Notes: generated by a model from the letters alone, not told the origin. A DNA stretch of 64,000 nt from Raillietiella orientalis (GCA_036172245.1 JAYWIR010000023.1:310001-374000), one strand, 5' to 3'. Shown: positions 3,001 to 37,299, counted from the first letter of the stretch. A program made the numbers and translations.

Positions 3001-3839
3001 TCAAGTTGCTTACCCTTTGATACGTTTGAATTTTTCTTAAATATGAGGCAAATTAGACGACATTCCATAGTGGAGACAATGCGCCTGCCCTGGATTTTCC
3101 CAAGGGGGAAAGGCATTTTTCCAGACTACAATTGAATTTGGAGCTAATCGTCCGGGAGAGAGATTAAAGGATGCCGATCATTAAGATGCAGCCACGAACG
3201 AGGGGAGTGAGTCGTAGCCGAGAAGAGAAACCCCTGGAACAGGAACGAAGGATGGACAAGTGCAAGGTGTAAAAAGATGTGGATTTATTAACCAGCTCGC
3301 TCTTCCTGTTTGCAAATCATCGACGCCTTCTCTGCTTGCAAGTGAAGCGGCAGCCGATGCTTAAGCGATTTTTTACGGCTGCATTCATCCTTTTTAAGAG
3401 TGAACGTCTGCGTGGAAGGTGAAATCGTGATGGAGCAGGGTCCTTGAACCGAGAACGGTCGGCCGTCATTTGTGTGCTTCTTGGAAACCAAAGAGTATGA
3501 AAAATCCACTTGAACTGCTGGAACCTTGTCGGGCCTGCACGGCATCTCACGATTTTCACAGCAGGAGCGCTGCTTGAGGTTGTCTTCCGCCGTGCCGGAT
3601 TGAGGTGTGGTTTGTCAAACATCCAGCATTCCAATTTGAGGTTTGTGTCCTGTGAGCCCCTTTACTTGAGACCATTTTCAATGGAACGGTTGATAAGCAT
3701 CTCTGCTTATTGGGTACGTGCTTCTCTTAATTTTCCATGTAATTGCCTTATCATGTCACCCTCGAGAAAAAGGAAAGAAATTCAAAGAGGGAGTTTTGAG
3801 GACTGCTTGTTCTGACGAATCTATTTTTCTTCTTTCAAG

Positions 3840-4594
3840 GATATGCGAGGATCATTTTGGCCATTGCAAGTTTTTCTGTATGGAGAACAAATTACGCGAT
3901 CGCTGGCATACTCTATGTCATCAGCAGCCTGTTGGATGCTTTCGACGGGTTTGCTGCACGATATCTGAATCAAGGTATCCTTTTCCCGATCACACTACGA
4001 TCTTTACCCCCTGATTTTCCCAGCAAGTCGATTTGGAGCCATGCTTGACATGCTCACCGATCGCTGCACTCTCATGTGCTTGCTGGTGGTACTCAGCTGT
4101 CTTTATCCTTTTTACATATTCTTTTTCCAAATGAGCATGATGATCGATATTTCCTGCCATTGGCTGTATCAGTACACGTAAGATAGTCCACTTCGCTCCC
4201 CCCTCCCCCCTGCAGTTGTATTTTCAGGTGCGTACTCTTCGGACAGGAATCTCACAAGAGCGAGACCGATTGGAACCATCCCGTTTTGCAGATTTACTAC
4301 GGGAGCCGATGGGTGCTCTTTTCGATGTGTGCAGCGAACGAGTTGTTCTACTCCTTTCTCTATTGGAACTATTTCAGCGAAGGATACAAAAGCAAGTGCA
4401 TTCCGTTCCTGGCGTTGACGTCGACCTTGATTCCTTTTTCAGTTGGCGGCGTCGGCCTGTACCGCATCCTCATTTGCTTGCTGATGCCGGTCGCTATCCT
4501 TAAATGCGTGATCTCTTTGATACATGGATACGTAGCTTCTGTGAGATTGGCTACATTCGACGCGAAGGCAAGGAACGACAGTCACCGGCCCTAG
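3840..4594 (+). CDS. CDIPT: CDP-diacylglycerol-inositol 3-phosphatidyltransferase (phosphatidylinositol synthase); 4 exons seen, first exon not located
   Basis: Exons 3840-3974, 4024-4177, 4228-4391 and 4443-4594 join in frame: GYARIILAIASF...LLDAFDGFAARYLNQASRFGAMLDMLTDR (CDP-alcohol phosphotransferase motif)...ESHK...MCAANELFY...LKCVISLIHGYVAS. Two GT-AG introns and one GC-AG intron of 49-51 nt. Confidence 0.93.
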
Positions 4595-4679
4595 GCTTGC
4601 AGCGTCCCCATGTGTTTTTTTTTTATTTTTTATTTTTGCACCTCGTAAAGCATTCCATTTTCGCGCCCGCAGTCACCGT

Positions 4680-7600
4680 TTACTCCTTCCTCAGAGGGAC
4701 CAGCTTGATCAGAATTGGTTCCGACGGCACGGACACCATTCTCATTTTGATGTGCACGTCGGTCTCGTTGAGAAGCTCCAGACGGAACGACTTGGTCAGC
4801 TATGGAGAGAGGAGGCAAACTGTCGCCAAATCAGCAGACCTTTGCGCGCGCGATCCCCTCGAGATTCACAGTGCCTCTTCCTGCCTTCCCAGCGAGCTCA
4901 GATGTCCCCTCGAATTACCTGCATGAGCAGCTGGCTCATGCTGATTTCCGATATCCTTTTCCCTATGCACGACCTCACACCTTTCCCAAAGGGAAGCGTG
5001 GCGTAGGAATCGATGCCTTTGCCTCCAGGTGTCCTCTCTATCCATCGTTCTGGCCGGAAATCTTTGGGATCTGGGAACGTTTGAGGGTCGCGTCCCATAG
5101 TGTAGAGCGATATTAGGACCAGCTTCTAAACGAACATCATTTAGTTCACCAAAGACTCGCGGGATGGAAACACCTTACTCCTTTCGGTATCTCGTATCCA
5201 TTGAGAACGATGTCTCTGTCCATGAGTCGCGTGACGAACGGTGCCACCGGGTACAGTCGCAGCGCCTCTTTGATGACTGCCCTCACGAACGACATGCCAT
5301 CATCGAAGGACTCGCAGCATATTAGCTTCTCTTGGATTCGGGGGTGTTTCGCCAGCGAATAGAGGACCCACTGCATGGCGTGGGACGTCTGGAAGACCGG
5401 GATCAAGCTCACCAGGAGAAAATGTTGAGAAACCTGGTGGAACTCATCGACCGTTCAGTACTGAGGGGCTTTTGGTTATTTAGACCTGCTGTCCCCCTCT
5501 GTGAAAGATCGCGTGGCCTCGTCGTTTTCAAGCGGTTTTTCCTTCTCTGCGGTTCTAGGTGCGGAACTCAGGAAGTGAGAGGGAAATGATCTTCGCTTTG
5601 CAGGAACCGCGGCCCGTCGGAGGGTTTCGCACAGCTCCCCCCTGTGGGCAAGCCTTGACAGTTCGCTCTCGCTCTCTACGTGGTTTCATCGAGAATTCCA
5701 CGGCAGCACAAGGGGGCCGTCGGAGGTGGAGCATTCCGTCGAGGGGTTTGCGGCTTCCATGCAACCACGCAGAATGGGGGCTACTTTCCCATTCTGCGTG
5801 GTCATTCTCGATTCCCCTGCCTCTCCTGAACGCAAGGTGGATCTGAAAAACGGAGGCAAACACTCCACGGAGGGCTTTTAGGATGCCATCCACAGCGATC
5901 CTCTATGTGTGTCCTTAGCTGGTCCGCCGCCCTGCGAGACGGATCCCTTCGGCGCCAGCGGTAGCCTCCTGGCGCCTTGCACTTTGTCTCTCCGTTTCGG
6001 AACCTTCAGCCCCGTTCCCCTCGGGTCAATTGTCGGAGTCCCGAGCTACCGAACGGCTGCATATCACACGTAGATGCCTGCAGGACCGGGACTGGCACCA
6101 CTCCCTTCCCCTCAACCTGTTTAGGCAAAAAAGCCACGTCTGACCAGCATTCGGAGTCACTGGGACGGCTACGTCGAATGGCATCACCCAGACAGTCAAG
6201 GTGTCCCTCGTCCCCAGTCGGACGTCAAAAAGGGGAAAGGACAATCGCGAGGGGCGCGGAAGGTGTCGGACAAAGGGGGAAGGAGAAGCGGCGGGTGAGG
6301 CGGAGCGTAGGGGAGCTGCAAGCGGAGGGAGCGCGACGCCCCGTTTCTCTGAGTATCCTGGCAACTCTTCTGCAGACTTGGCCTCCGTGGTTGGGACCGC
6401 GACTCTACACAACGTTCCGATAGATGACCCTGTAACCCCTCCGACGGCTCTCGCCGCCCGCGAGAATCCGCCCTCTTCAACCGGCTTGTCGTGGAGTGGG
6501 GGTTAGCGGCTTCCATCGGATCCGAAGCTTTTTGATCTTGCGGTCCCTTGGAAAGCATGGGAGTGGTTCTTCCTCGCTTTCCACGCGAAGTTCATGAGGT
6601 CGGTTCCATCATCCGCCTGGGGGGAGACGGCTCGGGAAGCTACACGCACTAGGACTCGCTTTCCTTTCCCCTCCGGACCGCCCTCCCTGTGACCTCGGAC
6701 TCCCGGCGTCCGCCCATTCTTTCCTCCCTTCGTTCCCTCGTACCGTATCAGCCGCAGCCATCAGCATGTCCACGGCCATCCTGCGCACGTATTCGTCGGG
6801 CAGCCGTTCCTTCATAAGCAGGTGGTAGATGATGCTGGGAGGGGACTCTTCGCCGCCGCTGTCTTTCGCTGTCGCGACCTCAGCGCAACGCTTGACGTAT
6901 CTATCCGCTACGCCCTCGGAATAGAGGTCATTTCAGATCAAGGAGGAAGTGGAGGGGGGGGAAGGCAGGAAGGGATACGGAAGAAAGGGGGAGCAGCGAC
7001 TCACCGAGGAGCAGGGAGGTGTCCAGCGCCCTGACGAGCTTTCTCCACGGGGGCAGGCGGAGAGTGGCGGCCAGTCCCGGGGGCACAACGGAAAGGGTTG
7101 CCGTTTCCGCGAAGACACGCCTCACTTGATCTACGAATTCATCGAAGGCGGAAGGCTCCTGTGTCACAATAGAGTCGAACTTCTTCCCGCAGACGACAGT
7201 CCCTAGGCCTGCAAGAGTGCTCAGGTGTGGCACGGCTGCTAGCCGTAGGGCGCGGAGGGCGAAGCAGTCCCTTCCGCCCACCGCCGCCGCTCACCGCGGA
7301 TGGACCACTTGTAAAGCTCCTCCTCGAGGTGGGTCAGGATGCGGCCTCCTGAGGTTTCTGCCCAGCGGCGCACCGTGCGGTATGCCATCTCCTCAACCTT
7401 GGGTACCTGGTCTTCCAGCCACGAGGGGTTCAGCAGCAGTCTGTTGAGAATCTTCCTGGCGCTGGCCCACTCCTCGCCTTCCCTGGAAAGAGAAGAAGGA
7501 GGGAGTGGATAGAAACTCGGGAAAAATCAAGAACTTTTGTCACGTGAAGGAAGGAGGGGGAAAGGTAACGCCAGAAGCCCTTGGGTAAGCTTTTTCCCGT

Positions 7601-8320
7601 CCCGTCTGCAGCGCACAATGCTCCTCCGACCATAGGAAATGCAGCCGAGCGGGTAGGGCCCGTACGTCTGCTGGGCGGCGGAGGCCCTCTGGCGACCAGC
7701 GACGGCTGTCCGCCAGAGGTCAGGGACTAGGCGGAAAACTTCGACTCCAGAGGAGGGGGGGGGAGGTGAGAGACGAATTTATTCTCGTTCCCTCCCCTCT
7801 TCCCCCCAAGGTGTGTCTCCGGAGAAGGGCGAACGAAAACCATGGGTACGATGAGTTGGAAGGGGGTAAGAGAGGAAGGAAGGATCACTCACATGAAGAA
7901 GAGTCCTCTGCGGCACCCGAACTTCTCGTTGTAGGCGAGCCAGCAGGCCGGGATCATGTGGGCGGGATGGCGCCCCTCCTGCTGGAAGATGCGCCTCGCT
8001 AGGTCTGCGCTGGCCACGAATACCGCATCCACGTGGCCGACGCGCTCCCGGAAGATGGGTCCCAGCTGCCCGTGCCGCATGTCGCAGTATTCATGGATCC
8101 TGCCGATGGACCCGAACCGCGCTAGGTCCCACGCCGTACCCACAAGCGGCAGACCCTTGGCCCAAGGTAGCTCGCAAAAGGGTCGCCCTCCTGGAGACGT
8201 CGAGGCGGCTGTGGGAACGAAAGGAAGGTCTCCGCGGGGGGCGGTGACCTCCGACAGGCAGCGCCCGGGGAGGCGCACCGGCCCCAGAAAGCACCGCCAC
8301 CAGCACAGCCGCCTCCTCAT
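4680..8320 (-). CDS. CYP315A1: Mitochondrial-clan cytochrome P450, most similar to CYP315A1 (shadow, ecdysteroid 2-hydroxylase); 7 exons, start codon uncertain
   Basis: Exons ~8320-7893, 7482-7295, 7208-7005, 6907-6744, 5388-5179, 5125-4919 and 4799-4680, all GT-AG and in phase. Motifs: GLPLVGT, LGPIFRE, RGLFFMEGEEWASARKILN, AAADTTSH (I-helix), KEALRLYPVAPF (ExxR), FRPERW, PFGKGVRSCIG (heme). Arg-rich N-terminus resembles a mitochondrial targeting peptide. P450 is certain; subfamily is from remembered motifs. Confidence 0.85.
5680..6560 (-). pseudogene. Decayed, GC-enriched cox2-like NUMT relic(s) in the 1.36 kb CYP intron
   Basis: Minus-strand frames give QDQKASDPME (~LQDSASPLME), LQGHLSE (~LHGQLIE), PSLQ (~PSLR), VWVMPFDV (~ILVTAADV) and GQTWLFCLNR (~NQTNFFINR) in cox2 order. 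The MEAANP segment recurs at ~5745-5760. Confidence 0.5.
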
Positions 8321-10169
8321 TGACTGCCGACAGGCGACGTCCGTTCTCCGAGCCGCGGCGTTCGCAGCCAGCATTCCTCGCGCTCGCACTCTTGAAGCGT
8401 CGACTGGAAGCCGAAGCAGCAGATCAGACCGCCTCCGGCTGCGAGCTCGCATTTGCTGCGCGAACAAGAGCCCTCCGGGGGGCGTGCCCGCGGGGCTTCT
8501 CTCTGACCTCTCACCTGCCACAGCGACGCGAACGCGTCCGCCGCGGTGCACTTGTTCTTCGCCGTCCCCTCCACCAGTGCCTGCCTCCATGGCCGAGCGC
8601 TTGCTGGGGCGGGGACGTCCCCCATCCCCCGTGCTTCAGGAGCTGCTCCCACGCCCACGCACCCTCCTTCCCGCTGCTACCCTGGAGCCCCTGGTTCTCC
8701 CTGTCGAGGGGGGCTTCTGGAGACGGCCTACGCAGGCGCGGATGCCCGCCATCTTTCTGGCAGTCCTCCGAGGCGCCTTCCCCCTTCTCCCCAAGCTCCA
8801 TCGGACGCGTCCTCCGTCCGAAGGGGAGAGGCTCCGCCGTTCTCCGCGGGAGAGGAAGCCGCGCCGCGCCTGCTCGAGACGCGAGGGCGGGGTCGTGAGC
8901 CTGCCACCCTCACCCCTTCCTGAGGGCTCTCCGTGCTGACAAGCGGCGGCGATGCAGCTCTTCGACCGGCCTCGCCCATCCCTGCGTCCACTGGAAAGGA
9001 AACCCTCCGGGCAAAGAGGCTGCAAGTCGATGCGGTGCCCGTGCGGAGATTTTTTTTTTTTCTTTTCCTTGTAAGCCTCACCCGAGGGGTGCCCCTTTCC
9101 AGGATTGATGAGCGGTGCTGACGCGCGCGGGGAGTGGGGAGCTTCCGTCTGGGAAGCTGCGCGCCGCTGCGGCGGCAACGGTCGCGGCCGAGGTGAAGTC
9201 TGGCCGGGGACGGCGGCGGGCGGGTCTCTGATGGAACTGCGGAGGCATCTCGCCGCCGGCAGAGGAACCTCGCGGGAGCGAACTTGCTCTCCGGAGCGGC
9301 GACACGGAAGGGCGGCTCCGATCTCTGGACGGCAGCGAACGGAACTCCAAGGTCGGCCCTGGAGACAAGGGCGCGGACAGGGCGAGGAATCGGCCCCTCG
9401 GGCTACCGCAGGGGCAGGTCCTAGGTCTGCTATCGATTTCTTTTTCATTTCGAGCTACATGGTTCTTCTCGCTCGCGACTCGTGAAGGCACGCGAGCGAG
9501 CGCTTCCGGGAGGATATTTCCCCCTCATGGTTCGAACGAGTTCGTGGCTCCGAGAGAGACGAAACCTGTTCAGAAGGGGTAGACTGAACTTTGGACCTGC
9601 GGGAGAGGAGGAGAGGTGTTCCTTATTGCTGTGACTGAGCTCCTCCCGTGGCGGAGCACCTTGCGCGACCGAATCACGCGTGAGGGTCGTCGAGAACGTG
9701 CGAGCGAACGGCACGGAGCTGCCCCAGCTCCCAGGTCTCCCGGAGGAGTCGGGGATCCTTCTAAGCAGGAGACTCGGGGAGGTGCAACGTCGTCTCAACG
9801 CCTAGCGGGAATCGCTCCTGGAGTTCTGGCATACGCACATGCGACTGTGGGACAACCGAACCGCTGAAAGGGATGTTCCCGAAAGCGCACATCCAGAGGG
9901 ATGCTCTTCCTCTTCCTTGATGGACATCCTCGAAGATGGGGTGCGTCAGGAATCGTTCCTGGGAGTCCAAGAGACGCTCAGGAAGCTCTGGGACGCAGAG
10001 GGAGCCTCTGGGAATCCTTTGGGCAGAGTTAGGGAGGGCGTGATCCTCCCCGCAAGGACAGGCCGAGGCGTTTCTTTGGCTGGAGTGCCAGGGATAAGGC
10101 TGGGCACGAAAGTGGCTCCCAAAGGCGTCGGGAAGTCGGTCCACAAGGAAGGAAACATGCAGAGCTCGT

Positions 10170-10952
10170 GGCGTTTCTTCCACGCCAATGCGGAGGCGAG
10201 CACAAGGCCGACGGGCCGAGGATTCCAACTGCGACTTGCCTTTTCCCTTCCTTTTGGGGGAAGGGGGTGGTGGGGTGAGTATCGAGAGACTCGCCCCTGG
10301 TCGATTTTCCTGACCCTTTGGAGAACACACGGCATTTGCCTGAGGATCGCGGATGTTGCTCCCTGATGCAGAGGCCGGGAACGCATCTTCAAGATGGATC
10401 TGGGAGGGAGATCGAGGGCTCGAGGATGGGGGACTGCCGCTCCTTCCGTTGGCCTCCCGCGCTTTCGCATTGGCTGCGGAGGCCGCAGGTGTTGGTCTGC
10501 GCGCTTCTCTGGTTGCGCCGCTGGGCGTCTTCGTCTGCGTGTCCCGCTTCCTCCCGCCATCCGCGACCTCTGTGCTTTGCCCCCCTAATCCCCACCTTCG
10601 CTTTGCCTTCCTCTTCCGCAGACCCGAGCCCTCGATCCCGTGGTAGAGGCAGGCTGAGACGACTGGCATCTCCTCCCTGCTCCAAGTCCTCAGGGAGATG
10701 GCCCCCATCGGGACTGAACAGGTCCCAGGCAGGGAGAGGGGGTCAACTGCCCCACCTCTCCTGGACTTTCGCCTCCCTGAACTTCGGCTCGCCGGGTGCC
10801 TCAGGCCCTAATATCTACGAGGCATGCGACTCACAACGCATGATAGGACGAGCAGGCAGATGAGAGCTCCATGACGTGGTCGTGCAGGAGAATGAGGCAT
10901 TCTATAATAGGGGAGCATGAACTTTGGAATAGTAGTAGGGATGTTACTACAT
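10170..10952 (-). pseudogene. cox2: cox2 NUMT relic
   Basis: FQSSCSPI(M)ECLILLHDHVM matches FQDSASPIMEQLIFFHDHAM, directly downstream of cox1. A weaker C-terminal match GKGKSQ...LRIGVEE (~GLFYGQ...MPIVVES) has correct spacing. Confidence 0.75.
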
Positions 10953-10999
10953 GTCGTCGTATGCACATTTTAAGCGTTCCTCGGTTCCCTGGCTGGGAT

Positions 11000-12400
11000 G
11001 GTAACAGGAGCTGCAGAAGTTACACTGCTGAGGAAGGAAGGGTTGTATTTCCAGTTCACCCCAACTGACCGCTGATGCTTGATCGATGATGAATGGCTCA
11101 TTCGTCAGTTTGTCCAAGTCGATGGCTGGAAAATTGGAATAGGGAAAGGAGGCATCCCGGGAGGGCGCCATGTTTCGAAAACTGACCAGCGTCGGGGTAT
11201 GCTCGTAAATCCCAGGAAATGCTGCAGGAGGAAGGTCGTGTTGACCCCCGACGTGCGGAGGGCTAGTCACTCAAGAAAGAGTGGTTGAAGGAGAGTGCTG
11301 TTGTTAGGGATGGTCGCGTAGATGGCGGGGAAGACGTCATCTGTAGGTTGAGGAGAGCTTGGCAAGACGCCGAAGAGATTTGCCTGTGGATGCGTTTGGA
11401 GTGACTTCAGTGAGTCCTTTGGCAGATAGGATAATAACTGTACTTCAGAAGGATTACACGCTATGCGAGAGTGCAGAACCAAGCGTTGCACCAACCCTAG
11501 GATGATTTCATTTTTGACATTTCATTTTTCCTAGGATGATTATTGGTGTCTAAGATCAAATAGGTTCGTGTGTCACGTCTAGACCTAAATAGAACACCTA
11601 GCGAGAGGAGACAATTAGCCGTAGTATTCCAGCGGCGATCATGGCATGGGAAGAATATTCTTCCTCTGTTGAAAGAATGGTTTATTCCTTAGGTCCAAGA
11701 TGTGGAACACAACACCAAAACCAACTCAGTTTGGATTTCTCGAAGAATCAAAACAAGTGTTGGAGACCAAGATGACCCTTCATTGTGAGGTCTAAGAGCT
11801 TCTCTTGTGGGGTCTAAGAACGATCGAAGAGGAATAGGGTGATCGCTCCTGATAGTACAGGCAGCACTAAGGTTAGTAAAATGGCGGTGTGACGGAGGGA
11901 TCATAGGGTAAGAGGGATGTCCGGGAGCGAGAATATCTGTGGATCGTATCTTGATGGCGGTGATGAAGAAGCTTGACTGCTCTTAAGACTAATGAGATTC
12001 CGGTATTTACTGATTAACTAAAGGGATGTTTGTGATGGAGGGAAGGGAGGGAAAGGTAAGGAGTCACATCCTGCTCTTGGTTCCTTGGAATAGAACATGG
12101 AGGAGTGACCAAAATCGGAAGTTGTTCAATCGTGAGCATGCCAGGCCTAGTGCTCAGTCGACTGCCAAACCAACCTATTGCGGCTAGTACAGCTAGGAAG
12201 AAAATCATGGTTAAAGAATGGGCGCTAATAGCAATGTTGTGGGGTTCATCGATTGTCAATGGGAGGTTAAGAAAGTTCTAGACGAATCTTAGGAGAGTTC
12301 TTAAGGTGTAAGCTCAAATTCTGTAGATACAGTAGTGTCTTCTTGGTTTGTATGTATGGGTCACCCTTGTAGAAAGCTCGTAAGACCTTGGATTCCCGAC
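11000..12400 (-). pseudogene. cox1: cox1 NUMT relic with stops and frameshifts
   Basis: ISAHSLTMIFFLAVLAAIGWFG (~[22 protein letters not shown]); IPLTLWSLRHTAILLTLVLPVLSGAITLFLFDR (~11830-11920); QHLFWFF with TGA=W (11742-11762); GVNTTFLLQHFLGFTSMPRR (~11190-11250). Confidence 0.93.
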
Positions 12401-12589
12401 CTTGAAGGTTAGCAATCTATTTTTAACATAATCTTGAACAAGATGTTCGGAGAGCAATTTGAATTTGAAAAATTTGAATCTGAAAGATACGACAGAGGAA
12501 CTTGGAAGCCAAATGGCTGAGGAAGGAGAAAATTCACAAATTCATCAATGGTTTCATTTTTCAAATTTTTTTTTTTTTTTTTTGATGAT

Positions 12590-13100
12590 TCGGAGATATT
12601 GCAAATGTTGGATTGAACTAATGGAACTGCTACTCCTAACTGAACTTTGAAGGAATTCTAAATCTGAGGTGAGAATGAGACGAGAGGGTGAAAGAGACGA
12701 AGGGGTTAAATTAAATTTGAGTTTTTAAATGAATGGGAGATAATCGCATCGGTTTTAAAACTATCTTATCCTTGGTGGTCATTGTGGTGAATTGTGTTGA
12801 ATATCCTTTTGACCTCAGTGCCCTTATCGAATGAAACCTCCAGCGTATTCTTGGAGATGGTGAGGATCCTTAGAATTGGTGGGTTGGATGATTTTTGGAA
12901 AAAAAACACCATCGTAATAAATGTTTCTGTCAACTTACTCAGCTGGTAACGAAAATTTTCATTTTAGAGAGCCACGATGGAATTGAATTTCAGAATGATA
13001 AATCTCAAAGATAACAAGCAATGATAAGGATTATTTTCACCATTTTTTTGGACTGCCTATGTTGTGCATAGAAAATAAAAACATTCAATTTAACTAAATT
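12590..13100 (-). pseudogene. nad2: Relic of nad2 3' half plus trnW/trnC region
   Basis: SMHNMG (~SINHLG) and PPILSILT (~PPFLGFLP). CCTTCAAAGTT (trnW anticodon arm) on - at ~12643-12653 and ATTGCAAAT (trnC) on + at ~12598-12606, in the expected position before cox1. Confidence 0.45.
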
Positions 13101-13109
13101 AAATATTCC

Positions 13110-14110
13110 AATTAAGGCATAAAGATATGTTCCATCAGTTAATCTTTGTTTCATTAAATATGTATGCCATTTTTATTAGAACATATAAGATCCCTTTAAG
13201 GGAGAACTAAAATGCGTTTTCATATATGAATACCTCATGTGTTTAGGGAGGTAATAAACATATGTTATGCTTCGATACCGTAAGGGGTCAATGCAATTCC
13301 GATAAAAACAAAAATGCCATTGACAAAAATCGGAAATTAAATGGAGAGGGTGAGAGTGGTTCGAGCTATAGCTTTTAATACTTACATTCACATGTATGGC
13401 GTAAAATCGGAATTACATAAGGCAAATAGGGATCATGACGTTGGAAATTGGCTAAAATTTACCGCCCTTTCAAATATCCATTTGACAGTCGGAATCTGTT
13501 CCCCGTCCGAAAGTCAAGGATCGGTTTGGTTGGTGCAAAAGAGAAGGATATCTCTGGACTGATGTGTCGACTAAAACGGCAGAAACGCAGACATTCGATT
13601 TAGAATTCGAATATGGTAAGGCTAGAGAACAGTTTCTACATTCCATCCACCGTATGGAATTTAGCAAGTTGTATTGGGAAGCATTTGGTTCTGAATACAA
13701 GAGACATTGGAGTTGGGGACTTTTGAGGATTTTCGCCCATTCGCAGCACCGGTTGCCCTGGGAGACAGGAGGTGAGTTCATGTTTTATGTGTCGAATGTT
13801 AGGAGGAAATGAGTTGGCGGCGGTACAGTTCGGTTGAGAGTTCGATTGAGAACCGGCGATCCGAGAAGAACCCTCTCCTGCATTTGCACGTGCTGCTTCG
13901 GTTATTTACAAGTAAATGATTTCCTTGATAAAGGGAAGCGATGGAGATGCTAATTTGAAACTGGATCTGATTCCTGAATCCATCTGAGAGTAGCAGGTAG
14001 AGAACAAGTGCAAAGCAGCGGAAGATAGTAGCAGTCTGTTCGGCTGACTGGCATTTATTTCTGCATGAGCTGAGATTACCTCGGCTTCGGACAGATTGGT
14101 TTCATCATCA
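13110..14110 (+). pseudogene. rrnL: Decayed mitochondrial rRNA (rrnS remnant then rrnL 3' domain)
   Basis: rrnL motifs in order: CGAGAAGAACCCT (~GACGAGAAGACCCT) ~13862, GTCTGTTCG 14034, CATGAGCTGAG...TTGGTTTC 14064-14103 (~CATGATCTGAG...TTGGTTTCTATC). Weaker rrnS-like TACCGCCC...AGTCGGAA at ~13460-13495. Confidence 0.65.
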
Positions 14111-14149
14111 GCTTTGTGAGCATGAAGAAGTTTTGGTTCGAAACCCGTT

Positions 14150-14960
14150 TAAAACTGTCGGCGGTGATGCAGGGGCTGCTTCAAGCGACGACGCGCTTCT
14201 GAGGGTATGCTGCGTGCCGTCGGTCGACCGGAAGATTTTGGGAATTGCATCCGAGGGGGCCGAAGGAAATAATATCGAGTTGAATCTGCTTGAAATCGCC
14301 AGGGAAAAGAGGAATCCGGAGTGGGTATACAGGGAAGAAAGTTGGTTGTGGCTTGGGCTCTGCAATGTGGAGGACAGGTGGGAGGGATGCAGGGACGGAG
14401 TAGACGAGAGGTGGACTGTTGTTGATGTTATCTCCTTGTTACTTGGAGGAGGGATCCATAGAATGCTGAGGAGGGGGTGAGGGATAAGTGGGAAACCTAG
14501 GTATGCTGGCGAGGCGTTTTTTCGGCATCCCAGGCGATTCCCGGTTGTTCGAATGAAAGCAGCGATCCATGCTGGGATTAGGTATGGAATTGAAGAATCG
14601 TTCGAGGTTTTTCGGGGTGGGGATGCCGGTGTCGCGAACCGTGGTGTATCTGACAAGAGCAAAATGCCTCGGGGTTCTTAGGAGGGGAGGCACTGCGTGG
14701 GTTTCGGTTCATAATATGGACAGAAGTTCGGCGTGGCATGTTTGATTTCTTGTTGCTATGGGAGTGCGGGTTTATCGTTCGTCGGTGATAAATTGGCTGT
14801 TTGATGAAGGTGAGTTGCGACAGCGTGAAACATTCGTTATTGTGTGTCTGTTTTCGTGATGACAGGAAGTGCATCGGTCCCATTGTGATAAGATGATGCA
14901 CACACGTTGCGACAGCTTTCCCCTTTTGGATCATGGGGGGTTACAAGGGTGTTTATGGTT
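14150..14960 (+). pseudogene. nad1: nad1 NUMT relic
   Basis: VDRKILG (~LERKVLG), GW from GGG TGA at ~14475, RSHCDKMMHTRCDSFP (~RFRYDKLMYLAWKSFLP). Follows rrnL and converges on cob, as in the arthropod ground pattern. Confidence 0.72.
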
Positions 14961-15249
14961 GAGCAGGTTGACCGGGAGTCGAAAATTGGTTTATACTTGG
15001 TGATGAAGGATTGTTTGTTTCTTGACCATGGTTTGTTGTATAAAAAAATAAAAATGAAAAAACAAACAAACAGCGGGCGTATGAGCTGCTGAATGGTTTT
15101 ATTTATTTTCTAATTTGCAAGGTCGACGTTTGAAAGGCCAGAGTGTAGGATAGGGGTTTCCAGTTTAGCAATACTGAAAAGGATCGTAAGGCTGCCATTT
15201 GTTTCGTGGGTAGGAAGGCGGAGCTGATGTGGTCGTCTTTGGGCACCTA

Positions 15250-16190
15250 AGCATGCGAGAAGGGAAAGAGGCAAGATGGATAGAAAGTTTCATCTGAGTG
15301 AATTGTATCGTGAGGATGGGAGAGAAGGCAGTTTAAATAGGGGCACAGCAGATAAGATCAGGATTCCCCTGGAGATGTATCATAGGGGGATGGTATAGGC
15401 GAGTCGGAGAGATATTCGGTGTTGGATGCGAGAGAGATAGATGAGTGGAGTCGAGGAGAGAAAGTTTTCTTCTGATATAAATGTGTGGGAGGAAGAAGAT
15501 GGATGTAAGGAAAAGAAGCAGAGGAAGTGGCGATAGGCTCTGTAGGTCTCTGATGGCAAAGGGTTGACGGAGTGGAAGTATGCTGGCTTTCTTTTGTTGC
15601 CTAGGGGCTCACGGTTCGTATATGTGAAGGAAATGGGAGAAGTAATGTGCTGCTGATGGCCATAAACATTGGTAGAATGAAGTGGAGAAAGAACAGATGG
15701 AGTTAGAAACCACGGGATTTCCTTATAGGAATGAGAAGACGTGCTGGTGGATGAAACGGAAAATGAGTTGGCGACGACTGCTGCGGCTCAGAATGACTCT
15801 CTTTCGGTCACAAATATACCGAAATGATACGATTAGGAGAATACGAGGGCAGTAATTATGATATTCAAGTTGAGATGTTTTTGTTTTAGAAGTAAAATAA
15901 TGAGGGTAGGTGGGTTGCTAGGAGAGATAGGGAGAAGCTCTTAGCATGCGTTCGAGTGGATAGAGAGTAGGAGTCAGCCCCTGGTGTTGTATATCAATCT
16001 GACGATGGAAAGAAAGGTTTCTTTGATGTGATGTACGGGGATAATAATTCCCATTCCTGTGATGTCTGAGAGGATTCCTGTTTAGCATCTCAAATACGAA
16101 AAGCGGGGAATGTTTGAAGGTACTACTATGCTGATCCCATGGATATATATTTTTAATAGTGAATGGAAAGAGCGGAAGAATGTTTCAGTT
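15250..16190 (-). pseudogene. cob: cytochrome b NUMT relic
   Basis: FRSFHSLLKI...VPSNI (~RKTHPLLKI...APSNI), GWLLLSIHSN, SFWAAAVVAN (~SFWGATVITN), FFLHFILP, EENFLSSTPL...IQ...AYTI (~DNFIPANPL..HIQPEWYFLFAYAI). Confidence 0.88.
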
Positions 16191-16199
16191 GGAGGATTA

Positions 16200-16612
16200 G
16201 GTGTGGCACAGTAATGAGGTTACAGTGAAGTGTAACATGAGAAATCAGGTAGCCTGGATGTTGATCGATATTGCTAGAATTTTTTTCTGTAGTCTTATTT
16301 GTTTATTAAAATATAGAATAGATGTAGTTATAGAATGCTGATGGCGGATTAGTGGGGATTACGGATGAGGGACTAAAGAATGATCAGCGGGACTGTGGTT
16401 GGCGGTTTTGGATCAAAGCTGGGCAGTTCGAGCGAGGCATGAGAAGACGATGATAATTCCTCCAAGTTGGATGAAGTAGAGGATAAGAACGATCGTGTGT
16501 CAGGTAAACGGAACTGAGGAGTGTGGCTATGGAGACGGAAGTGAGTGTGAGTAGGATGATGATGTTGGTTTCGAAGAAGAATCGGAGAGATGGTGCCATA
16601 GTTAATACCATA
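16200..16612 (-). pseudogene. nad6: nad6 NUMT relic
   Basis: Hydrophobic frame with FIQLGGIIIVFSCL (~LIFLGGMLVLFIY), immediately upstream of cob. Confidence 0.6.
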
Positions 16613-16623
16613 CAAAATAGGTT

Positions 16624-18102
16624 TGACACTCGGTTGAGCCGAGGCATTTATTTACATAAAAAATAAATCTACAGAGTAGTGGCAGGACGCTTGGTCTTGC
16701 CATGTTATAAATATACTAAAAGGAACCTGCCGAGTACCGGCACGCAGGCCGGCGAGGTTCACCGCGGCAGCAGAGGAGGAGGGGAAACAACAAAAAAAAA
16801 AGAAAATAAAACGAAAAAAATACATACAAAAAACTGGGGGATGGTTCGGGAAGGGACCAGCGGGTACTGAAGGGGACGCTCTGCATCCTTTGCAGGATGC
16901 CGGCAAGTTTCTGTTTTAAGGTTCCCAGATGGGGCCATCTTGACGCCATCCTCATAAAGGCGACAGAAAAATAAATGGCATTCCTATCGTTCTGGCCTCC
17001 TCTGGCGTTGCTCCATTCAGCCACCATCCCGCGTAGTCAGCAGAGTGCTGCTAGGGATGCGGCCGGCCTGAGGATGTCGCGCAGGAAGAGGCGCTTCAAA
17101 GCGTCTCTGGTTTGCCCTCGAGGCCCCGCAGGGACGCGGCAAAGCGTTCCCACAGGGGGCGGAGGGCAACACAATCCACGAGCAGGTGCGGGAGGGACTC
17201 TCTTTCGCCACATCTGCTGCAGTGGGGGCTCGCATTCCCTCGGGTCCAATGGCGACGGCGGGCTTTGCACGGGAGGCTCCAATGCAACAAAAGGATCGCC
17301 GACTCCTGCCGCTTTAGGAAGAGGTTGCACTGTTGCAGCAGGCCGGAGGCCACTGTACGTCCTCCGGAGGAATTGGCAGTAATCCTCCCCAGAGTAGCAG
17401 TCCTTTTGGAGGGACACTCGGGGTGGCAGCGTCCTCCAGCTCTCGAGTTGTCCATGCACCTAGAAGCGTTTTTCGATTTTCGATAGTGCACGTCACCTCC
17501 CGCCTTATCGGAAGGCCGCTCGCTGTCTCTTGCTTCCCGTAGAGAGGTCAGCACTGGTGCAAGGGGGGTGAACGACGCCCAAAGCAGATTCCTGGTGTTG
17601 AACAAAATCTCCCTCAACGACTGACGAGTACATCTGCTGTTTCGTAGGCACATGCATCCTCGTGCCGTTGAGGATAACGTGGCTGCGGAAACGGACTCCC
17701 GTAGCCAAGTAGAACAGTTCGCAGGGAGGACGGAGATCCAGGGATTTCGTTGCACCAAGGCAACCAGTTGGCGGAGTCGAGAGCCAGGATGGCTCAAACT
17801 CCTCTCGGTGGCCACGACGACCAAAGTCTATCCCTCGAAGCCGGTTGCTCGCTTGACGAGGATTCTTGCCGTAGCGCGCCAAGGCGTAGTCCAAAGCTTG
17901 GAAGGCCAGTCCGGGTTTTCGGAAGTGGAGCTGACGCTGTATCCTTTCCAGCGTAAGGAAACCCAGTCCACCATCCCTACGTGCAGCGCAAAGGTCGGGG
18001 CTTTCCTGAGGAGGTCCTCGGTCCTCTTTTGCATGGCCGCAGGGGTGGGACAAAGAAAAAGCAGGGAGTGGAAGAGGGGAGCTGCAAACACGTTCCACAC
18101 CG
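16624..18102 (-). mobile_element. 5'-truncated non-LTR retrotransposon (Tx1/L1-like), copy 1, inserted in the NUMT
   Basis: RRDGGLGFL motif, zf-RVT CSRC...HLLVDC, T-rich 3' UTR, AATAAA plus terminal hairpin. Perfect 11-bp TSD CAAAATAGGTT at 16613-16623 and 18103-18113. Confidence 0.88.
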
Positions 18103-18429
18103 CAAAATAGGTTGGAAGTGTCTGGATTCGTCAGGATACTTCAAGTACCTGAACCATATCCAGGTTATTCAGGAGTAGCAATTAAAGTGCTTATGATAAA
18201 CGTCCTTCTTGAGCATTTTGAAGGTTTTGCATTAATAAGGGTCATATCGATTGAAGGTTATAAAAGGATCAAGATTAATCATGATAAAAGAATGGAATTT
18301 TCTAATTTTTTTTCTTGATAGTAGCAAGAGATGAACACGAGATGTCAGTTTGGATAGTCAAATATTTGTGCCGTAGACGGGCTTCTTTGACTGTCATGGT
18401 TACGGTGATGATGATCGTTGACATTGGAC

Positions 18430-19780
18430 GTTTTGTTGTTCTGGACTGGTGCCTTGAAGGAAGGAAGTGCTCATGTGAACAAGAGCGGAAAGATGAGTAG
18501 CGGATTTTTGGGGACAGAGGCTATGGTCGATAGACGATTAGGCTGTGGCTGAGATTTGGATCAGATTGGGTCGAAGTGGTTTTGGTTTATTTGAAAGGCT
18601 TACGCTGTCAACTGCTGGGAAAGATGAGTGGCGCTACTGAGTGTATCTACTGGTTCAGTGGTAACTAAGATAGTGAGAGCAATATAATTAATATACTACT
18701 GGCATTCACAGGGATGAAGGCAATAACAAGAGGTTCAGTGTGGAGTAATTGCGTGATGCGACTGAAAGGATGTATGGCACAAAGGAGTGGTTAATAGGAT
18801 AAGTCAAGGGTATTCGTAGTATCGGAAAACAAGTCTTGAATGGTTTCTTGGGTGGTCCGTTATCTGAGCTTGAAGATTGCGGTTTCATCGGATGATTCCC
18901 AGGAATCGCGAGCAACAGAGTTCAGTGCCTCTAGGAAACTGGGCGTGGAAGGGCAGGAAATTCTTGATTTGTTTTGTGCTCATGGCAGTGTCACTATCCA
19001 AGGAGGTACTATGCATAAGATGCCAAGCGAGGAAAATTGTCGATCAAGTTCGAGGAGGACTTGGGGGTCAGTGAGTATATTTACACAGTGTCGATTCGAC
19101 GGAAAAGGAATGGACCATTTCCGTCCGTATTAACTGATGATGCGTTGGGGAGAACAGACTTTGCGCCTTCTCCTGCGATTCGCTTTCTTTAAGGTTTACC
19201 GTGAATGCTGTGTGTGTAGATTTGTAGAGCATGAAATTTTACATTTAGATCAGCTGACATGGAGACACAACACTCAAGGAAAGATTCGGATCGAAACTAA
19301 CTCTGTGATCATCTAATACCTTCGAATGGTTTCCGTGGAACATTCGTGGAATCCATCCGATGAATGATTCAGTTTCCATCCCGGGATTTGTTACAGGATC
19401 AGGGGTAAGGATGAGACGGGCGGTGAGCGCGAAAGAGCTGACAAGGATAAGATGGCCCTCACTGCGATATCGGTAGGTCGGAAATTCGATGGTATCTTGT
19501 TAGATGATATCACCTAACAAGATATCATCACCACTCTGAAAACATGGCGGCGACTTCATAGGAACTAGATGGAGGGTGAGAAGAGTGCTTTGGATTTCGG
19601 ACGGAATGCAACAGAAGTGATGAAGCGTTGCAGCCGAATAATAGATAGAAACTTGATGATTATAATGGAGAAGAACATCGGAGAAATGATCGGGGTGAAA
19701 GATGGAAAGAGGGGAGAAACTTTATTCCTTGGAAGAAGATGGAGATGGGATGCTGACGGTCTCCGTTCAAGGATCGGCAT
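18430..19780 (-). pseudogene. atp6-cox3-nad3 NUMT relic
   Basis: atp6 SNFRPTDIAVR (~SNIIRPGTLAVR) ~19455-19490; cox3 LVSIRIFPW, YGRKW and IVTLPWAQ (~VTVTWAH); nad3 PF...FDP ~18565-18600. Order is canonical. Confidence 0.65.
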
Positions 19781-19899
19781 TCCTTGATAAGAATTGATTG
19801 TGATGATCGTCCTTTGATCACGTCCCGCTCCCAGCTTGCACTGGTCTCACTCTGGGGTCATGGAACCTTCAGATGTTCCTTCTCTTCCCGCTCTCCCAT

Positions 19900-21850
19900 C
19901 CAGCGCTTAGTCTGCGTTCCGCGCCCGTGCACAAGATGAGCCGGAGCGCCCGGGACCCTGTGAGCAGGAGTCTCCAAGAGCGTCCGATCGTCTCGCAGAG
20001 ACAAGATGCATGTTTGAAGTTGCCGAAGGGGTCCAGGAAGGGCGGTGCGCGCGTTCTTACAGGAAGGTTTTGTCCCGTCGCCGTTCACGAAATTCCGGAT
20101 CTCCTCGTTTGGAGAAAGGGACCGCGTCTCCCGCCTCGGGGACGATCCTCTTTGGCGTTGCTCTGCAGCGGCCACCAACGGACCTTCCGAGAAGGGCTGG
20201 TGAGGTCAGGATGGGAACCTCTCGTTCCTCCCCTCCCTCATCTCCAATTTTCCATGGAAACCACGTAATCCTTCGGTAGGCTTGCCACGGTCTGCTCTCC
20301 GAGCGAGTGCCTGGACTCGCGCTTACGTCAGGGAGGGGCTTTGGTTTGAACCGCTACCTGTGCCGCACCCGAATGAATGGAGGCCAACCAGGGTCATCTT
20401 GCGGGAGGAACTCGAACCCACGACGCACTGCGTCGATTCAGTTCGGAGTATCCGAACCCGCGACGCTTGGTGGTGCCACGCACGGAGACCGCATCAGTCA
20501 CAGGGTTTCCGAAGCGGGCTCGTTCCGTGCCTTTCCGAATGCTCTGGACAATCCCCTTGCGCCACCGCGACTTCGCTATCGGCTGCCAGCTAGACACGGC
20601 AGCAGCGGCAGCAGCAAGCCGGTCCCTCATGATGACCGGCGGCGACATGGATTCAGATATATTATCGATCTCGGCTGGTCGTCTTCCCTGAGGATTTCGG
20701 TCCGTTGCTCAGGTAGGGGGCCAACTGCGGCCACCTTGCCTTCGAGTTAAAGAACGGCTCGCTTCCTCCATCCCGCCCGAGGCGCCAGCAGAGCAAGGGA
20801 TCCACTCAACTCTCTCGTCCGGGTAGAACTCGGGAGGGATCTCGAGCCGATATACGGGTCCTTCCGGGAAACACAATCAAAGGGTGGGTCATTCCCCTCC
20901 GATTGTTCAGAAAGGAGGACTGCCCTCTTCGGGGGGGACCCTCCGCCTCGTATCATGGAGCTCGTGTGGTACCTCTCCAGAGAGTGCAGAGAAGCGTGCC
21001 ACTCCCTTCAGGGAGCACCCTTCTGAGAAATTGCGGAAGTGTCCCTTCGGGATTCTCTAAAGAGGAGGAGGAAATAGGGAGCGGTTCCCTTGCGGAGGAT
21101 TCCTCCGGAGGAGAAATTCCTAGAGGAAGAGAAACTCTCCCACTTCCTTTGCTGACTTCCGCACAGGAGGCTTCCGTTCCCCACGTGCGGGCGGGGAGCT
21201 GCTTCACCGACACGACGCTCTCGATGTCATCCCGACAGCATGGCAGCAGAAGGTCCCCGGTCTCACACGGGCACGGATGGAGATCCAGTGACTCACCATG
21301 CCCCCACGGTTTCTCGATTCTTCCTGTAAAAACTTTGCCATTCTTGGAAAGGGCAATGGAGTGACTCTTCAAGTTAGGGGGGTAACCCTGGGAGGGGACT
21401 ACCCTATGAATTCGGGAAGGGCTCCAGAGGAAGGAGTCCGTTCCTCTCTCGCTTGGAAGGAAACCTCGGAGGAAACCCTCGCTCTGGTTGTCTCATGGAA
21501 CAGCTCCTTTTGCTCGATCAGAGAGTAGCTTCGAAGAGTTCCTTGATGTCCTTGAAGGACCCCGGAGGGTCACCTTCCAATCCCGTCCAGTCAACGGGAG
21601 CGCCCGGCTTCCACCGATGCCACACCCGAAGCCAACCGAGGGGCTAACCAACGCCATCCTACGGGGGTGACTCGACACCCACTCGACACCCACGCCCTTC
21701 ATTCCTTGGCGTTGACCCTTCCCCACATGGAGGAATCGAACTTGCGACACCCGGTGCTGCCACGCTGGAGACCGCAGCAGTCACGCAGCCGCCGACGCGG
21801 GATCGTCTCGGAAAAGGGAAGCCATCATTGCAACGGAGATGTCCTGCGGG
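19900..21850 (-). pseudogene. Second, GC-enriched nad2-cox1-cox2 relic upstream of atp6
   Basis: nad2 GRDW and SGALPEFMG (~SLGGLPPFLG); cox1 GSGRVSLPLGISPPEESSAR (exact spacing to [20 protein letters not shown]) and EGSGT (~SGAGT); cox2 PNEEIRNFV...ALPGPLRQ (~PMNTQIRILV...AVPGRLNQ). Segment 20360-20520 duplicates 21620-21800. Confidence 0.62.
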
Positions 21851-22034
21851 CATGGATGCCCCCTGGACCCCACTGTTTTCCTCCCCCACGTTAGCGCGAC
21901 GGCGCTCCTTTTCATGCTGAGTCTGCTGGCCTCACTAGTAGTCGTCGTCACGGGAGCGTGCGCCGTCGTTTGGTAGACCTCATCCGGGAAGCGAGACAGG
22001 GGAGGAAACGGGAGCTGAGGATCCCAAACCAACA

Positions 22035-23005
22035 CTAGGAGGGGAGCTGGGACTCCTCGTGGCCTCCTCCTGGCCTTGGCACTCCAGAATGTACGGAGCT
22101 GGATACACCAGCGGTCCAGAGTTACTCTGAAAGCAACCGAGATATGGAGACGGCAGCAATACTTACATCATTCCAGAGTGCTGCGTTACATCCAAATAAT
22201 CTCTGGAAGCTTCATCCATAGGACCCGCGAAGTGTGGAAAAGCCACAACGACTTCCCTTGGTCCAGGGTAGCTAAGAGCAACCTAAGCCGACTAATAGTT
22301 GAAGAGTACGACACCAGTACCCTCCAAGAAGCCGCCGACCGCCACACCAGCAGTGGATTTAATCCATTAGCTATTGGAACGGTGCTCTGGAGGAGTGACC
22401 TGCCACCGGACACTCAGATAACCTCCTAATGTTTTACCATGGAGGCATCCTGAGTGGATCCAGAATGAAGCTATTCACGGGAACAAGAGAAGAAATCTGC
22501 AGAGCATGTGGTGGCATCGATACAAAACTTCACGTTTTGATCTGTCCCACAATGCAAGCAGAGTGGCATACCCTGAAAAGGGTCATTGGGCTGCCGAGCA
22601 CCTCAACCATGGCGATCTTGGCAGGGATGTTCCAAGGAAATGGAATTGTTTCCTGTTGTAATCCAATGGTAAGAGTGATCATCGCCCTCTTCATCACCGC
22701 CATCCTTGTGCGGTGGTGGAAGATGAAGACCACCAGGAATGCCGTATCTCCAATGGAAATCCTGAAAGGGCTGACCCAGAAGGAGATTAGCATCAGAAAC
22801 TGCGGAAGAGTCCAGGCCTGGAATACTGTCACATCCTGAGAAGGACTGAAGGCAGCATCTAGGCTCAAACGACTTCCAGGTAATTAAGTGCAGTGAACTT
22901 TTCAGAGACCAAAGAAGTAGAATTCAAGTAAACACTAGTGAAGTGCAGTGTAGTTTCTGTGCAATTTGTATGAATGAGATTGTAGTATGAATGGAAAAAA
23001 GAAAA
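22035..23005 (+). mobile_element. 3' fragment of a second non-LTR retrotransposon family (L1/Tx1-like)
   Basis: GGELGL motif at start, an in-frame stop at 22427-22429, then CRACGGIDTKLHVLIC (zf-RVT CCHC), short 3' UTR and an A-rich end at ~22996-23005. No TSD seen. Confidence 0.7.
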
Positions 23006-23119
23006 TTCACCCCACCCCTTGTGGGACTTGGGGAAAACAGAACGCGGCAGTAGAGTCATTGTGGTTGACGTCGTCCGCTGCTTGATGTCCATGCGAGAGC
23101 AGTGGAACAGCGTCCGAAG

Positions 23120-23797
23120 GAGCACGAAGAGAAAGGGGGGCCAGACGTAGGAAGGTGCTAGCTCCAGGGAGGGCGCTGGGTTCCTGGGAACCTGGGACCC
23201 GAGTGACGACGGGACTCTCGCGGGAACACGGGGTTCCCTGCGCACAGGGCATGCGTGAAGAATTCAGGGCACGCCGGGACATCCACCAGGGACGCTTCCG
23301 GGATGAACAGCCGGAGCTGCTGCAGGCGCCGCCCCGAGAGCAACCCCAGAGACATTTTAAAGCGCCTCTTCCTGCGCGACACCCTCACGACACCCTAGCA
23401 GCACTTTGCTGCCTATGCAGGATTGTGGCTGCATGGACAAACGCCAGAGGAGGTCAGAATGACTGGGACGCCACCTATTGTGCTGTCCTCTTCATAAGGA
23501 TGGCGTCAAGGAAGGTGGCTCCATCTGAGAACCATAAAACAGGAACTTGTCGGCATCCTTTCTAGGATGCAGACGACAACCTCCAGCACACACTGATCCC
23601 TTCTCGAACCGCCCCTTTTTTTTTTGTATTCTTTTCCTTTTTGTTTGTCTTCCCTTCCTCTGTGCTGCCGAGGCAAACCTCGCCGGCCTGCGCTCCGGTT
23701 CTCGGCACATTCCTTGGACCAAGTGGCAGGACCAAGCGTCCTACCACTTCCCTGTATGCTCACTTTTTGAATAAACGACCCGGCGTGACCGGGTGTC
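23120..23797 (+). mobile_element. Tx1/L1-like LINE, copy 2 (short 3' fragment)
   Basis: Clear nucleotide similarity to the reverse complement of 16624-17250 (NARGGQND, FIRMASR). 14-bp TSD AAC(A/C)GCGTCCGAAG at 23106-23119 and 23798-23811, one mismatch. Confidence 0.88.
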
Positions 23798-24739
23798 AAC
23801 CGCGTCCGAAGATTGGAGTTCCAGCCCGATCGGGAGCGACCGCGAACACGAGTTCAGGGACTCCCGCCTCATTTGCCACACCAATCCTGCGGGATCCCCT
23901 TCGAAATGTGGGCGAACTCGGCTTGAACGACGGCCTACTGTTGCATGGCTTCGGGTCCTCCTGAGAGGTGCACCCGGAACCGCTGGTGCGCACACGCCGG
24001 ATTGCGGGATGCGAAAACCCCGGCGCTTCATGTGGGTGCCTTTCGGTGAGGAAGCCCCCGTACGCGGATCAAAGAGCGAGGTGATCTGTAGGGGAGCACG
24101 AGATCCGACACTCTCCACTTTGGCCCCCTTGCAGTTGCGAGCGCTCAGCTTCGAAAAATCTGTTTGTGCGCCTGCGCTGTGTTGTGTGTGTGTGTGTGGG
24201 GGGGGGGAGTGCGTTCGCCAAAGCGCAGTGCAAATGCAAAGTAGCAAGCCATAGAAGGCAGAGAAGCGGAAGTTCTAATTGAACACTCTATTCTGCAGGT
24301 ACGCGCGCGCGCTCCAGGAGGTGGACATCTGGCGTCGCGAGAACGAGAAATGCACGGACGCGTTGATTTTCATTGCCGATTCGTAGCGAGAGAAAGACCG
24401 TGGTCGGAGGGGGCACCGAAAACACGAGCGCACGCTCTCCCTTCAAAGAGCGTGCCATCCAACGTCCAGGAACGTCAGGAACGGTTCGGTGCGAATCCGA
24501 GAACTTTCGCACGCTCGGGATGATGCAGCAACTGCTCCGTTCCCGTCACCCGTTCCGCGCAAACACCAATCAGGACTCGGTCCGAGGTGGGGAGGAAAGT
24601 TATTATAGCAATAATAATGATACGAAAAATAGGAAAAATCACACTAATCAAAATACATGCAAGTGTCGTGGAAACCAAGCACACATACAAACTGAAGGAA
24701 TACGAAATGATTGGCTGGCTCTATATCCCCCCCCCCCCC

Positions 24740-37018: not shown

Positions 37019-37299
37019 CTGTTGCTGGAAAAGAGCACAAAGTAGAAAGGCAGCCACGCTTCTTTTCGTAAAGACCGCTCGGCGAGTCCATGGCCTGCAG
37101 GCGAGACGCGAGTTGCCATTCCGAGCGAGGGAGCGATCCCCTGCCGTTCCCACGGGCTCGCCATCTCGCGGAAGAACACGGCACGTGTCGCAGGCATCCG
37201 CTCAGCATTCTTCCCGGATATCCAGATGTCTTTTGCGGTTTACGTTTCCGCCCGAGGGGGCACACCTGTTCCTGAAGGGAGGGAGAGCTGGCCCAGGAT

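Follow-up and report, generated by a model that had tools for sequence, protein, structure and literature searches.

A decayed nuclear copy of mitochondrial DNA in Raillietiella orientalis, passing once round the circle and probably preserving an older gene order

Makeup and extent of the relic

Here we describe a relic of mitochondrial DNA (mtDNA) in a 64,000-nucleotide stretch of the Raillietiella orientalis genome (C23:310001-374000), hereafter the window. C23 is a 3.1-Mb contig of a 210-Mb assembly; other contigs are named likewise (C2, C32, C50, etc.), and "host" refers to the assembly's own animal. Nuclear mitochondrial DNA segments (NUMTs) are commonplace, so the insertion of one is unsurprising, and this genome carries many, of all ages. 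A preliminary description had placed a fossil mitochondrial genome at 9,650-21,850. The NUMT is real, but its limits are ~10,810 and ~19,800, in agreement with steps in base composition: at both borders GC climbs to ~0.6 and the skew drops. It is very probably one linear piece of own-lineage mtDNA comprising ~84% of the circle (from nad3 across the control region as far as the 5' end of cox2), now nuclear and neutrally decayed.

Pfam searches traced the host mitogenome to a pair of small contigs. C282 (9,200 bp) runs from cox1 into the beginning of cob, and C320 (5,855 bp) holds the remaining cob, nad1, rRNAs, control region, and nad2. A nuclear copy on C50, with 95% identity, bridges both joints, so that C282 and C320 together form a closed circle of 15,055 bp. 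This copy (C50:53.7-69 kb) is a near-exact single full circle opened within cox1; nad5 is shorter on C282 than on C50, and the C282 nad5 may be misassembled. The best database matches of host cox1 are pentastomids at 72-73%, followed by insects at no more than 71%. In the genome, 83 and 66 DNA matches to these mitochondrial contigs were counted, self-matches included.

To identify relics, host mitochondrial proteins were aligned with frameshifts allowed and scored against local shuffles (z), and DNA profiles made from host mtDNA together with its nuclear copies were run with nhmmer. The features, in the order in which the NUMT is read, are as follows.

~10,810-19,800, minus strand: whole NUMT, ~7.5 kb mitochondrial plus an inserted 1.5-kb long interspersed nuclear element (LINE), spanning ~12.6 of the 15.06 kb of the host circle
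19,350-19,788, minus strand: nad3 relic, z = 4.3; nhmmer E 8e-11 jointly with trnR
19,273-19,327, minus strand: trnR relic, E 9e-4 in a 1.45-kb target
18,591-18,862, plus strand: probable nad5 3' end, weak (3 of 80 shuffles reached its score; E 0.006; spacing)
18,213-18,474, plus strand: nad4L relic, z = 7.1; nhmmer E 2e-4
16,624-18,102, minus strand: 5'-truncated retroelement of the type lacking long terminal repeats (non-LTR), 1.48 kb, between nad4L and nad6
16,185-16,614, minus strand: nad6 relic, z = 16
15,153-16,135, minus strand: cob relic, z = 37 and 12; nhmmer E 3e-52
14,977-15,149, no strand given: trnT-trnP relics, directly behind cob; local E 0.007 and 0.003
14,196-14,970, plus strand: nad1 relic, z = 8.6
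14,025-14,109, plus strand: rrnL 3' stub, nhmmer E 3e-8
13,568-13,937, plus strand: rrnS relics, nhmmer E 3e-6 and 0.01; local E 1.5e-7 and 5e-4
12,950-13,560, no strand given: AT-rich stretch, not alignable, presumed control region by position
12,680-12,938, minus strand: trnS2-trnI-trnM and a short nad2 5' stub (tens of bases); whole-window E 5e-5; beat all 300 shuffles
12,381-12,610, no strand given: tRNA cluster trnC-trnY-trnQ-like-trnW; trnQ-like 12,436-12,507; trnW E 2e-5 and trnY E 0.05 over the whole window
11,000-12,375, minus strand: cox1 relic, amino acids 2-503 of 511, z = 62; 19 frameshifts, 4 stops
10,813-10,944, minus strand: cox2 5' end, amino acids 4-47, z = 13; 55 bp past cox1, end of the NUMT
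20,335-21,813, no strand given: right flank, pieces of a dispersed non-mitochondrial nuclear repeat; best pieces 80-92% identical
9,400-10,810, no strand given: left flank, nuclear and GC-rich, single-copy (it finds only itself in the genome), located upstream of a P450 gene

No shuffle reached the score of cox1, cob, nad6, cox2 (amino acids 4-47), nad1, nad4L, or nad3 in the protein alignments. The homology to host mtDNA is significant at a nucleotide identity of 55-60%, and blastn and tblastn matches of host sequences in the window are confined to ~10.87-19.79 kb. The bulk signature of mtDNA is also present, with the mitochondrial code, gene order, tRNA and rRNA relics, and spacers, and the piece is flanked by non-mitochondrial nuclear DNA (a repeat on one side, single-copy sequence on the other, with the P450 gene nearby). 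The NUMT is ancient and of arthropod type, as the preliminary description had proposed: the relics have the stated polarities and TGA is read as Trp, standing at 7 of the 13 cox1 positions where the host has Trp. Its gene list was upheld for cox1, cob, nad6, the cox2 start, nad1, nad3, rrnL, and rrnS, but not for nad2 as a gene, atp6, or cox3; nad4L was absent from it.

Between rrnS and cox1, protein alignment detected no nad2 gene (z -1.0), and none of the nad2, control-region, or rrnL alignments to 12,450-13,620 was significant. The spacing across the control-region interval is 793 bp, compared with 786 bp in the host, and GC falls as low as 0.25. Two readings made by eye were dropped: trnN/E/F relics after trnR (~300 bp at 18,975-19,273), for which there was no match, and nad2 at 18.6-18.8 kb, where 7 of 80 shuffles did as well. 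A further weak trnY/trnW-like match lies over the trnM/nad2 stub at 12,640-12,736 (E ~0.001-0.006 without bias correction); it may be what remains of a duplicated tRNA cluster, or a chance match. Rfam reported neither rRNA nor tRNA for the window; ARAGORN returned 0 tRNAs with the bacterial code and largely noise in mitochondrial mode at a lowered threshold. Among 33 read-through frames, Pfam matched only COX1 at 10.8-12.6 kb (E 7e-4, 0.05) and one unrelated weak family. The copy is so decayed that ordinary searching misses it, and it is not among the 54 own-genome COX1 matches.

A single pass round the circle

All 17 anchors are strictly colinear with a single pass round the host circle, in the order nad3-trnR-(nad5 3' end)-nad4L-nad6-cob-trnT-trnP-nad1-rrnL stub-rrnS-control region-trnS2/I/M-trnC/Y/(Q)/W-cox1-cox2 5' end, and each circle position occurs once. 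The NUMT had been described as longer than one circle, a concatemer or later tandem duplication with a first lap of nad2-cox1-cox2-atp6-cox3 at 19.8-21.85 kb and a second atp6 at 9.65-10.8 kb. No mitochondrial gene or segment is present twice. On the right (19,800-21,900), none of nad2, cox1, cox2, atp6, and cox3 beat shuffles, with z of -0.7 to 0.5 for the supposed lap. The same was true on the left (9,600-10,870) of the 3' part of cox2, atp6, and cox3 (z 0.0 to 1.7), where atp6 scored like shuffled sequence. Thus the flanking nad2-cox1-cox2 copies were no better than shuffled sequence, the outcome that the description itself had named as refuting it. Since nad6, nad4L, and nad3, all fast genes, are detected at equal decay, the flank test has power.

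The DNA profiles, 38 that together cover the circle, agree. The right flank (19,810-21,900) gave no match at E<=1, and the left flank (9,400-10,810) gave one, at E=0.83. When the whole window was searched together with the 10 kb to either side of it (E<=0.5), only two matches fell outside the NUMT: a weak one at 59.1 kb and one ~7 kb left of the window, the latter a short AT-rich, control-region-like match (E 2.5e-4). Sensitive self-comparison of the NUMT showed no duplication except a 42-bp palindrome within the nad3 relic (19,488-19,529). Neither flank matched a Pfam family. The right-flank repeat is high copy and GC-rich, with 4,707 first-look candidates, and also occurs at 41.4-42.1 kb in the window.

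More than one circle, whether by concatemer or tandem duplication, is therefore extremely improbable, even though the relic order does pass the conventional start and tandem NUMT arrays occur elsewhere in this genome (C33, with three copies ~18 kb apart, and C110) and in cats (PMC2820518, excerpted text). Any linear fragment of a circle can cross the conventional start, and the C50 copy likewise runs past nad2/cox1. None of the eight flank tests (five genes right, three left) beat shuffles while nad6, nad4L, and nad3 next door were detected, the right flank holds a high-copy GC-rich repeat in place of any profile match, and 5 kb of genes would need large deletions to fit 2 kb. The 7.9-kb tandem numt of cats, as far as the excerpt of PMC2820518 describes it, is repeated nuclear mtDNA, whereas the window NUMT is a single pass with nothing repeated. 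Arrays of the repeated kind were observed at C33:95-155 kb (three 80%-identical nad2-cox3/rrnL copies ~18 kb apart) and on C110 and C159, with many rrnS-nad1 copies; C226 was also named as such an array.

Origin, decay, and later history

The relic derives from the host's own lineage. Relic cox1 scored 442 with host cox1; with 45 of 120 database matches, it scored 355-362 for three pentastomids and at most 344 for 42 insect proteins. In a cox1 tree that combined the host and six NUMTs with three pentastomids and ten insects, the relic lies inside the host and NUMT clade, the stem of which has a bootstrap of 100. Foreign mtDNA, such as that of an insect or of the vertebrate host of a parasite, would be in keeping with a nucleotide identity to host mtDNA of just 55-60% and with the foreign DNA that the genome does contain, a decayed Wolbachia coxB-coxA on C34. 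We consider it highly improbable: cox1 is nearer to host mtDNA than to any other lineage scored, 21 diagnostic sites have the host/pentastomid state at 10 and the insect state at 1, and the placements of trnW and trnT-P, which are lineage-specific, are common to relic and host.

The C34 genes lie at ~2,970-4,910, minus strand, of the stretch C34:2036500-2042000, within a 2.35-Mb contig. Their five best matches have 82-89% amino acid identity, the named ones being Wolbachia; Trp is mostly TGG, and there are frameshifts and a stop. By sequence, this is probably an old transfer from Wolbachia to the nucleus.

Decay was measured as substitutions per site at second positions of invariant codons, a figure affected by alignment noise. 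For the window cox1 the value is 0.34 (95% interval 0.24-0.47), which indicates that selection no longer acts. Of the nine own-lineage cox1 copies measured, it shows the most decay, the others being C2 (0.28), C46 (0.24), C32 (0.15), C18 (0.12), C220 (0.09), C33 (0.07), C63 (0.06), and C50 (0.01); C34 was removed, as one of ten rows, because it is Wolbachia-derived. No open frame survives (cox1 is broken by 19 frameshifts and 4 stops), and the NUMT appears to be without evident function. Its age may be tens of millions of years, going by general arthropod rates.

Next to the NUMT, at 7,889-8,635 on the minus strand, a cytochrome P450 of the mitochondrial clan has its first exon (Pfam E 1e-7; CYP24 and CYP11 as best PDB matches); the gene may resemble the ecdysteroid gene shadow/CYP315A1. 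Co-option of the relic, as regulatory sequence or non-coding RNA, for this gene, which starts ~2 kb downstream, is very unlikely. Proximity to the P450 and the fact that a 7.5-kb piece has lasted so long speak for it; the decayed invariant codon positions, large deletions, LINE insertion, and lack of an open frame speak against it.

Internal gaps of ~2.2 kb (nad5/nad4), ~1.2 kb (rrnL/trnV), and ~0.94 kb (nad2) total ~4.3 kb, compared with losses of just ~70-170 bp in each retained interval. The 3' part of cox2, atp8, atp6, and cox3 are wholly missing. The retroelement lies between the two copies, at 16,613 and 18,103, of a target-site duplication of 11 bp; together with the 5' truncation and a weak zf-RVT match (E 0.016, under the Pfam cut-off), this is the basis for calling it a LINE. 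It has 5,281 first-look candidate relatives, and the best other copy is 93% identical, which makes the insertion far younger than the NUMT. A further repeat family and two more copies of the same LINE family occur at 22,095-23,040, 23,326-23,800, and 26,455-27,290.

These features suggest that a linear own-lineage piece, from nad3 by way of the control region to the beginning of cox2, was captured long ago in a nuclear chromosome, probably by end-joining at a double-strand break (as in the excerpted text of PMC2820518). It has since decayed neutrally: frameshifts are numerous, three deletions took out stretches of 0.9-2.2 kb, and the LINE was inserted later. The deletions seem to postdate insertion. 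A variant of this reading, in which nad5/nad4, rrnL, and nad2 were already missing because fragments were joined in one repair or deleted mtDNA was captured, is possible but rather unlikely. The three gaps are clean and far larger than the losses elsewhere, and younger NUMTs jump too (C33, from cox3 to the 3' end of cob). However, random fragment joining would seldom keep order and strand at 17 of 17 anchors, and the age of the NUMT gives ample time for deletions.

Elsewhere in the window, 32,100-37,240 on the minus strand carries what are presumably exons of an insulin-degrading-enzyme-like metalloprotease (read by eye from open reading frames and a motif), and Rfam matches a U2 snRNA 5' fragment, likely a pseudogene, at 43,679-43,761 on the minus strand (E 0.006).

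The mitogenome order probably recorded

The relic and the host have in common trnW beside cox1 and trnT-P behind cob, and differ in two duplications. The host carries a decayed trnL2-cox2 duplicate at C282 1,800-2,300 and a trnT-like duplicate on C320 near 4,830-5,000. The gap between cox1 and cox2 is 55 bp in the relic and 38-67 bp in C220, C15, C18 (weak), C46, C32, and C2, compared with 567-618 bp in the host, C50, and C33 (C63 and C34 were uninformative); the relic is therefore without the host's ~0.5-kb decayed cox2 duplicate. Similarly, trnT lies 4 bp from cob in the relic and 7-8 bp in C8, C133, and C33, compared with 115-117 bp in the host and C50 (C9 was uninformative), so the extra trnT-like copy is also absent. 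The spacer past trnR varies among NUMTs, which suggests a decayed duplicate of the nad5 end.

The tRNA order of the relic is likely trnC-trnY-trnQ-trnW (C-Y-Q-W), compared with Q-C-Y-W in the host. Its trnY-trnW interval is 72 bp; younger copies have a short spacer there. In C32 a clear trnQ lies between trnY and trnW (E 2e-7), and Y-Q-W order is found in C32, C46, and weakly C2. When this gap was compared with trnQ, 0 of 2000 shuffles did as well for C32, 1 for C46, 5 for the window, and 49 for C2. A C-Y-Q-W profile made from C46 and C32 fits the window in one piece (36.7 bits), whereas Q-C-Y-W profiles split in two, and six younger copies (five loci) are Q-C-Y-W, as in the host. Thus an order that differs from extant mtDNA recurs in independent old copies, with the trnQ call in the window being of moderate strength. 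The NUMT would then have frozen the mitogenome of its day, with trnW by cox1, trnT-P behind cob, no cox2 or trnT duplicate, and probably C-Y-Q-W.

Several points weigh against parts of this account. The decay interval of the window overlaps those of C2 and C46, so the window copy need not be the oldest. The nad5 3' end, trnC, control region, and window trnQ calls are weak, and the junctions of the NUMT are as read from the assembly. The window trnQ was not the best match in an unbiased whole-circle search, where 42 of 150 shuffles equalled it, and comparing the gaps directly with one another gave weak results (267 and 49 of 2000 shuffles). A trnQ once upstream of trnC could also have gone with the nad2 deletion. 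Finally, placement of the relic inside the host clade of the cox1 tree is poorly supported (bootstrap 44-76).

Taken across the genome, it seems reasonably probable that a graded series of NUMTs records stepwise rearrangement of the mitogenome, with the window among the oldest entries. The series would begin with the extinct nad2-C-Y-Q-W-cox1 (window, C2, C46, C32; decay 0.34-0.15), followed by Q-C-Y-W (C18, C220, C63; 0.12-0.06), the trnL2-cox2 duplication (C33, 0.07), and the trnT duplication (C50, host). Tandem duplication-random loss (TDRL) is a model of mitochondrial gene rearrangement. A single duplication-loss step would turn C-Y-Q-W into Q-C-Y-W, and the decaying cox2 and trnT duplicates of the host fit the model. 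Here, the earlier states come from nuclear copies in a single genome and not from other species.

Large NUMTs have been called "molecular fossils" captured by non-homologous end joining (Hazkani-Covo et al. 2010, PMC2820518, excerpted text). Compared with those in the excerpt, the window copy stands at ~55-60% identity and has a tRNA order unlike that of today's mitogenome. In the gene table of PMC12856591, Armillifer moniliformis resembles the host in that trnS2-I-M precedes nad2 and trnD alone separates cox2 from atp8. However, its nad2-W-C-Q-Y-cox1 order, with T-P before nad6, is unlike both the host (Q-C-Y-W) and the old NUMTs (C-Y-Q-W). The order of Linguatula serrata is said to be similar to that of Armillifer (PMC7800056), and the nad2-Y-C-Q order given for Argulus japonicus in the gene table of PMC10999652 also differs from the host and old-NUMT orders. 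Our literature search found no paper on pentastomid NUMTs or the C-Y-Q-W order; most subscription journals lay outside it, so unpublished status is not implied.

The NUMT itself is of a known kind and modestly interesting. While the more striking proposal, more than one circle, fails, the suggestion that it may record an ancient mitogenome was right: the relic is without two duplications of today's mitogenome, and its tRNA order is probably older. A copy this decayed is still readable and, with the other old copies, orders mitochondrial rearrangements in time without recourse to other species, so that the TDRL model becomes testable stepwise in this lineage. The NUMT also offers a neutral reference against which the ages of nuclear substitutions, deletions, and LINEs can be gauged. 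If true, the NUMT series would amount to a fossil record in which the order of duplication-loss events can be read directly, for a pentastomid-like lineage that has been poorly sampled.

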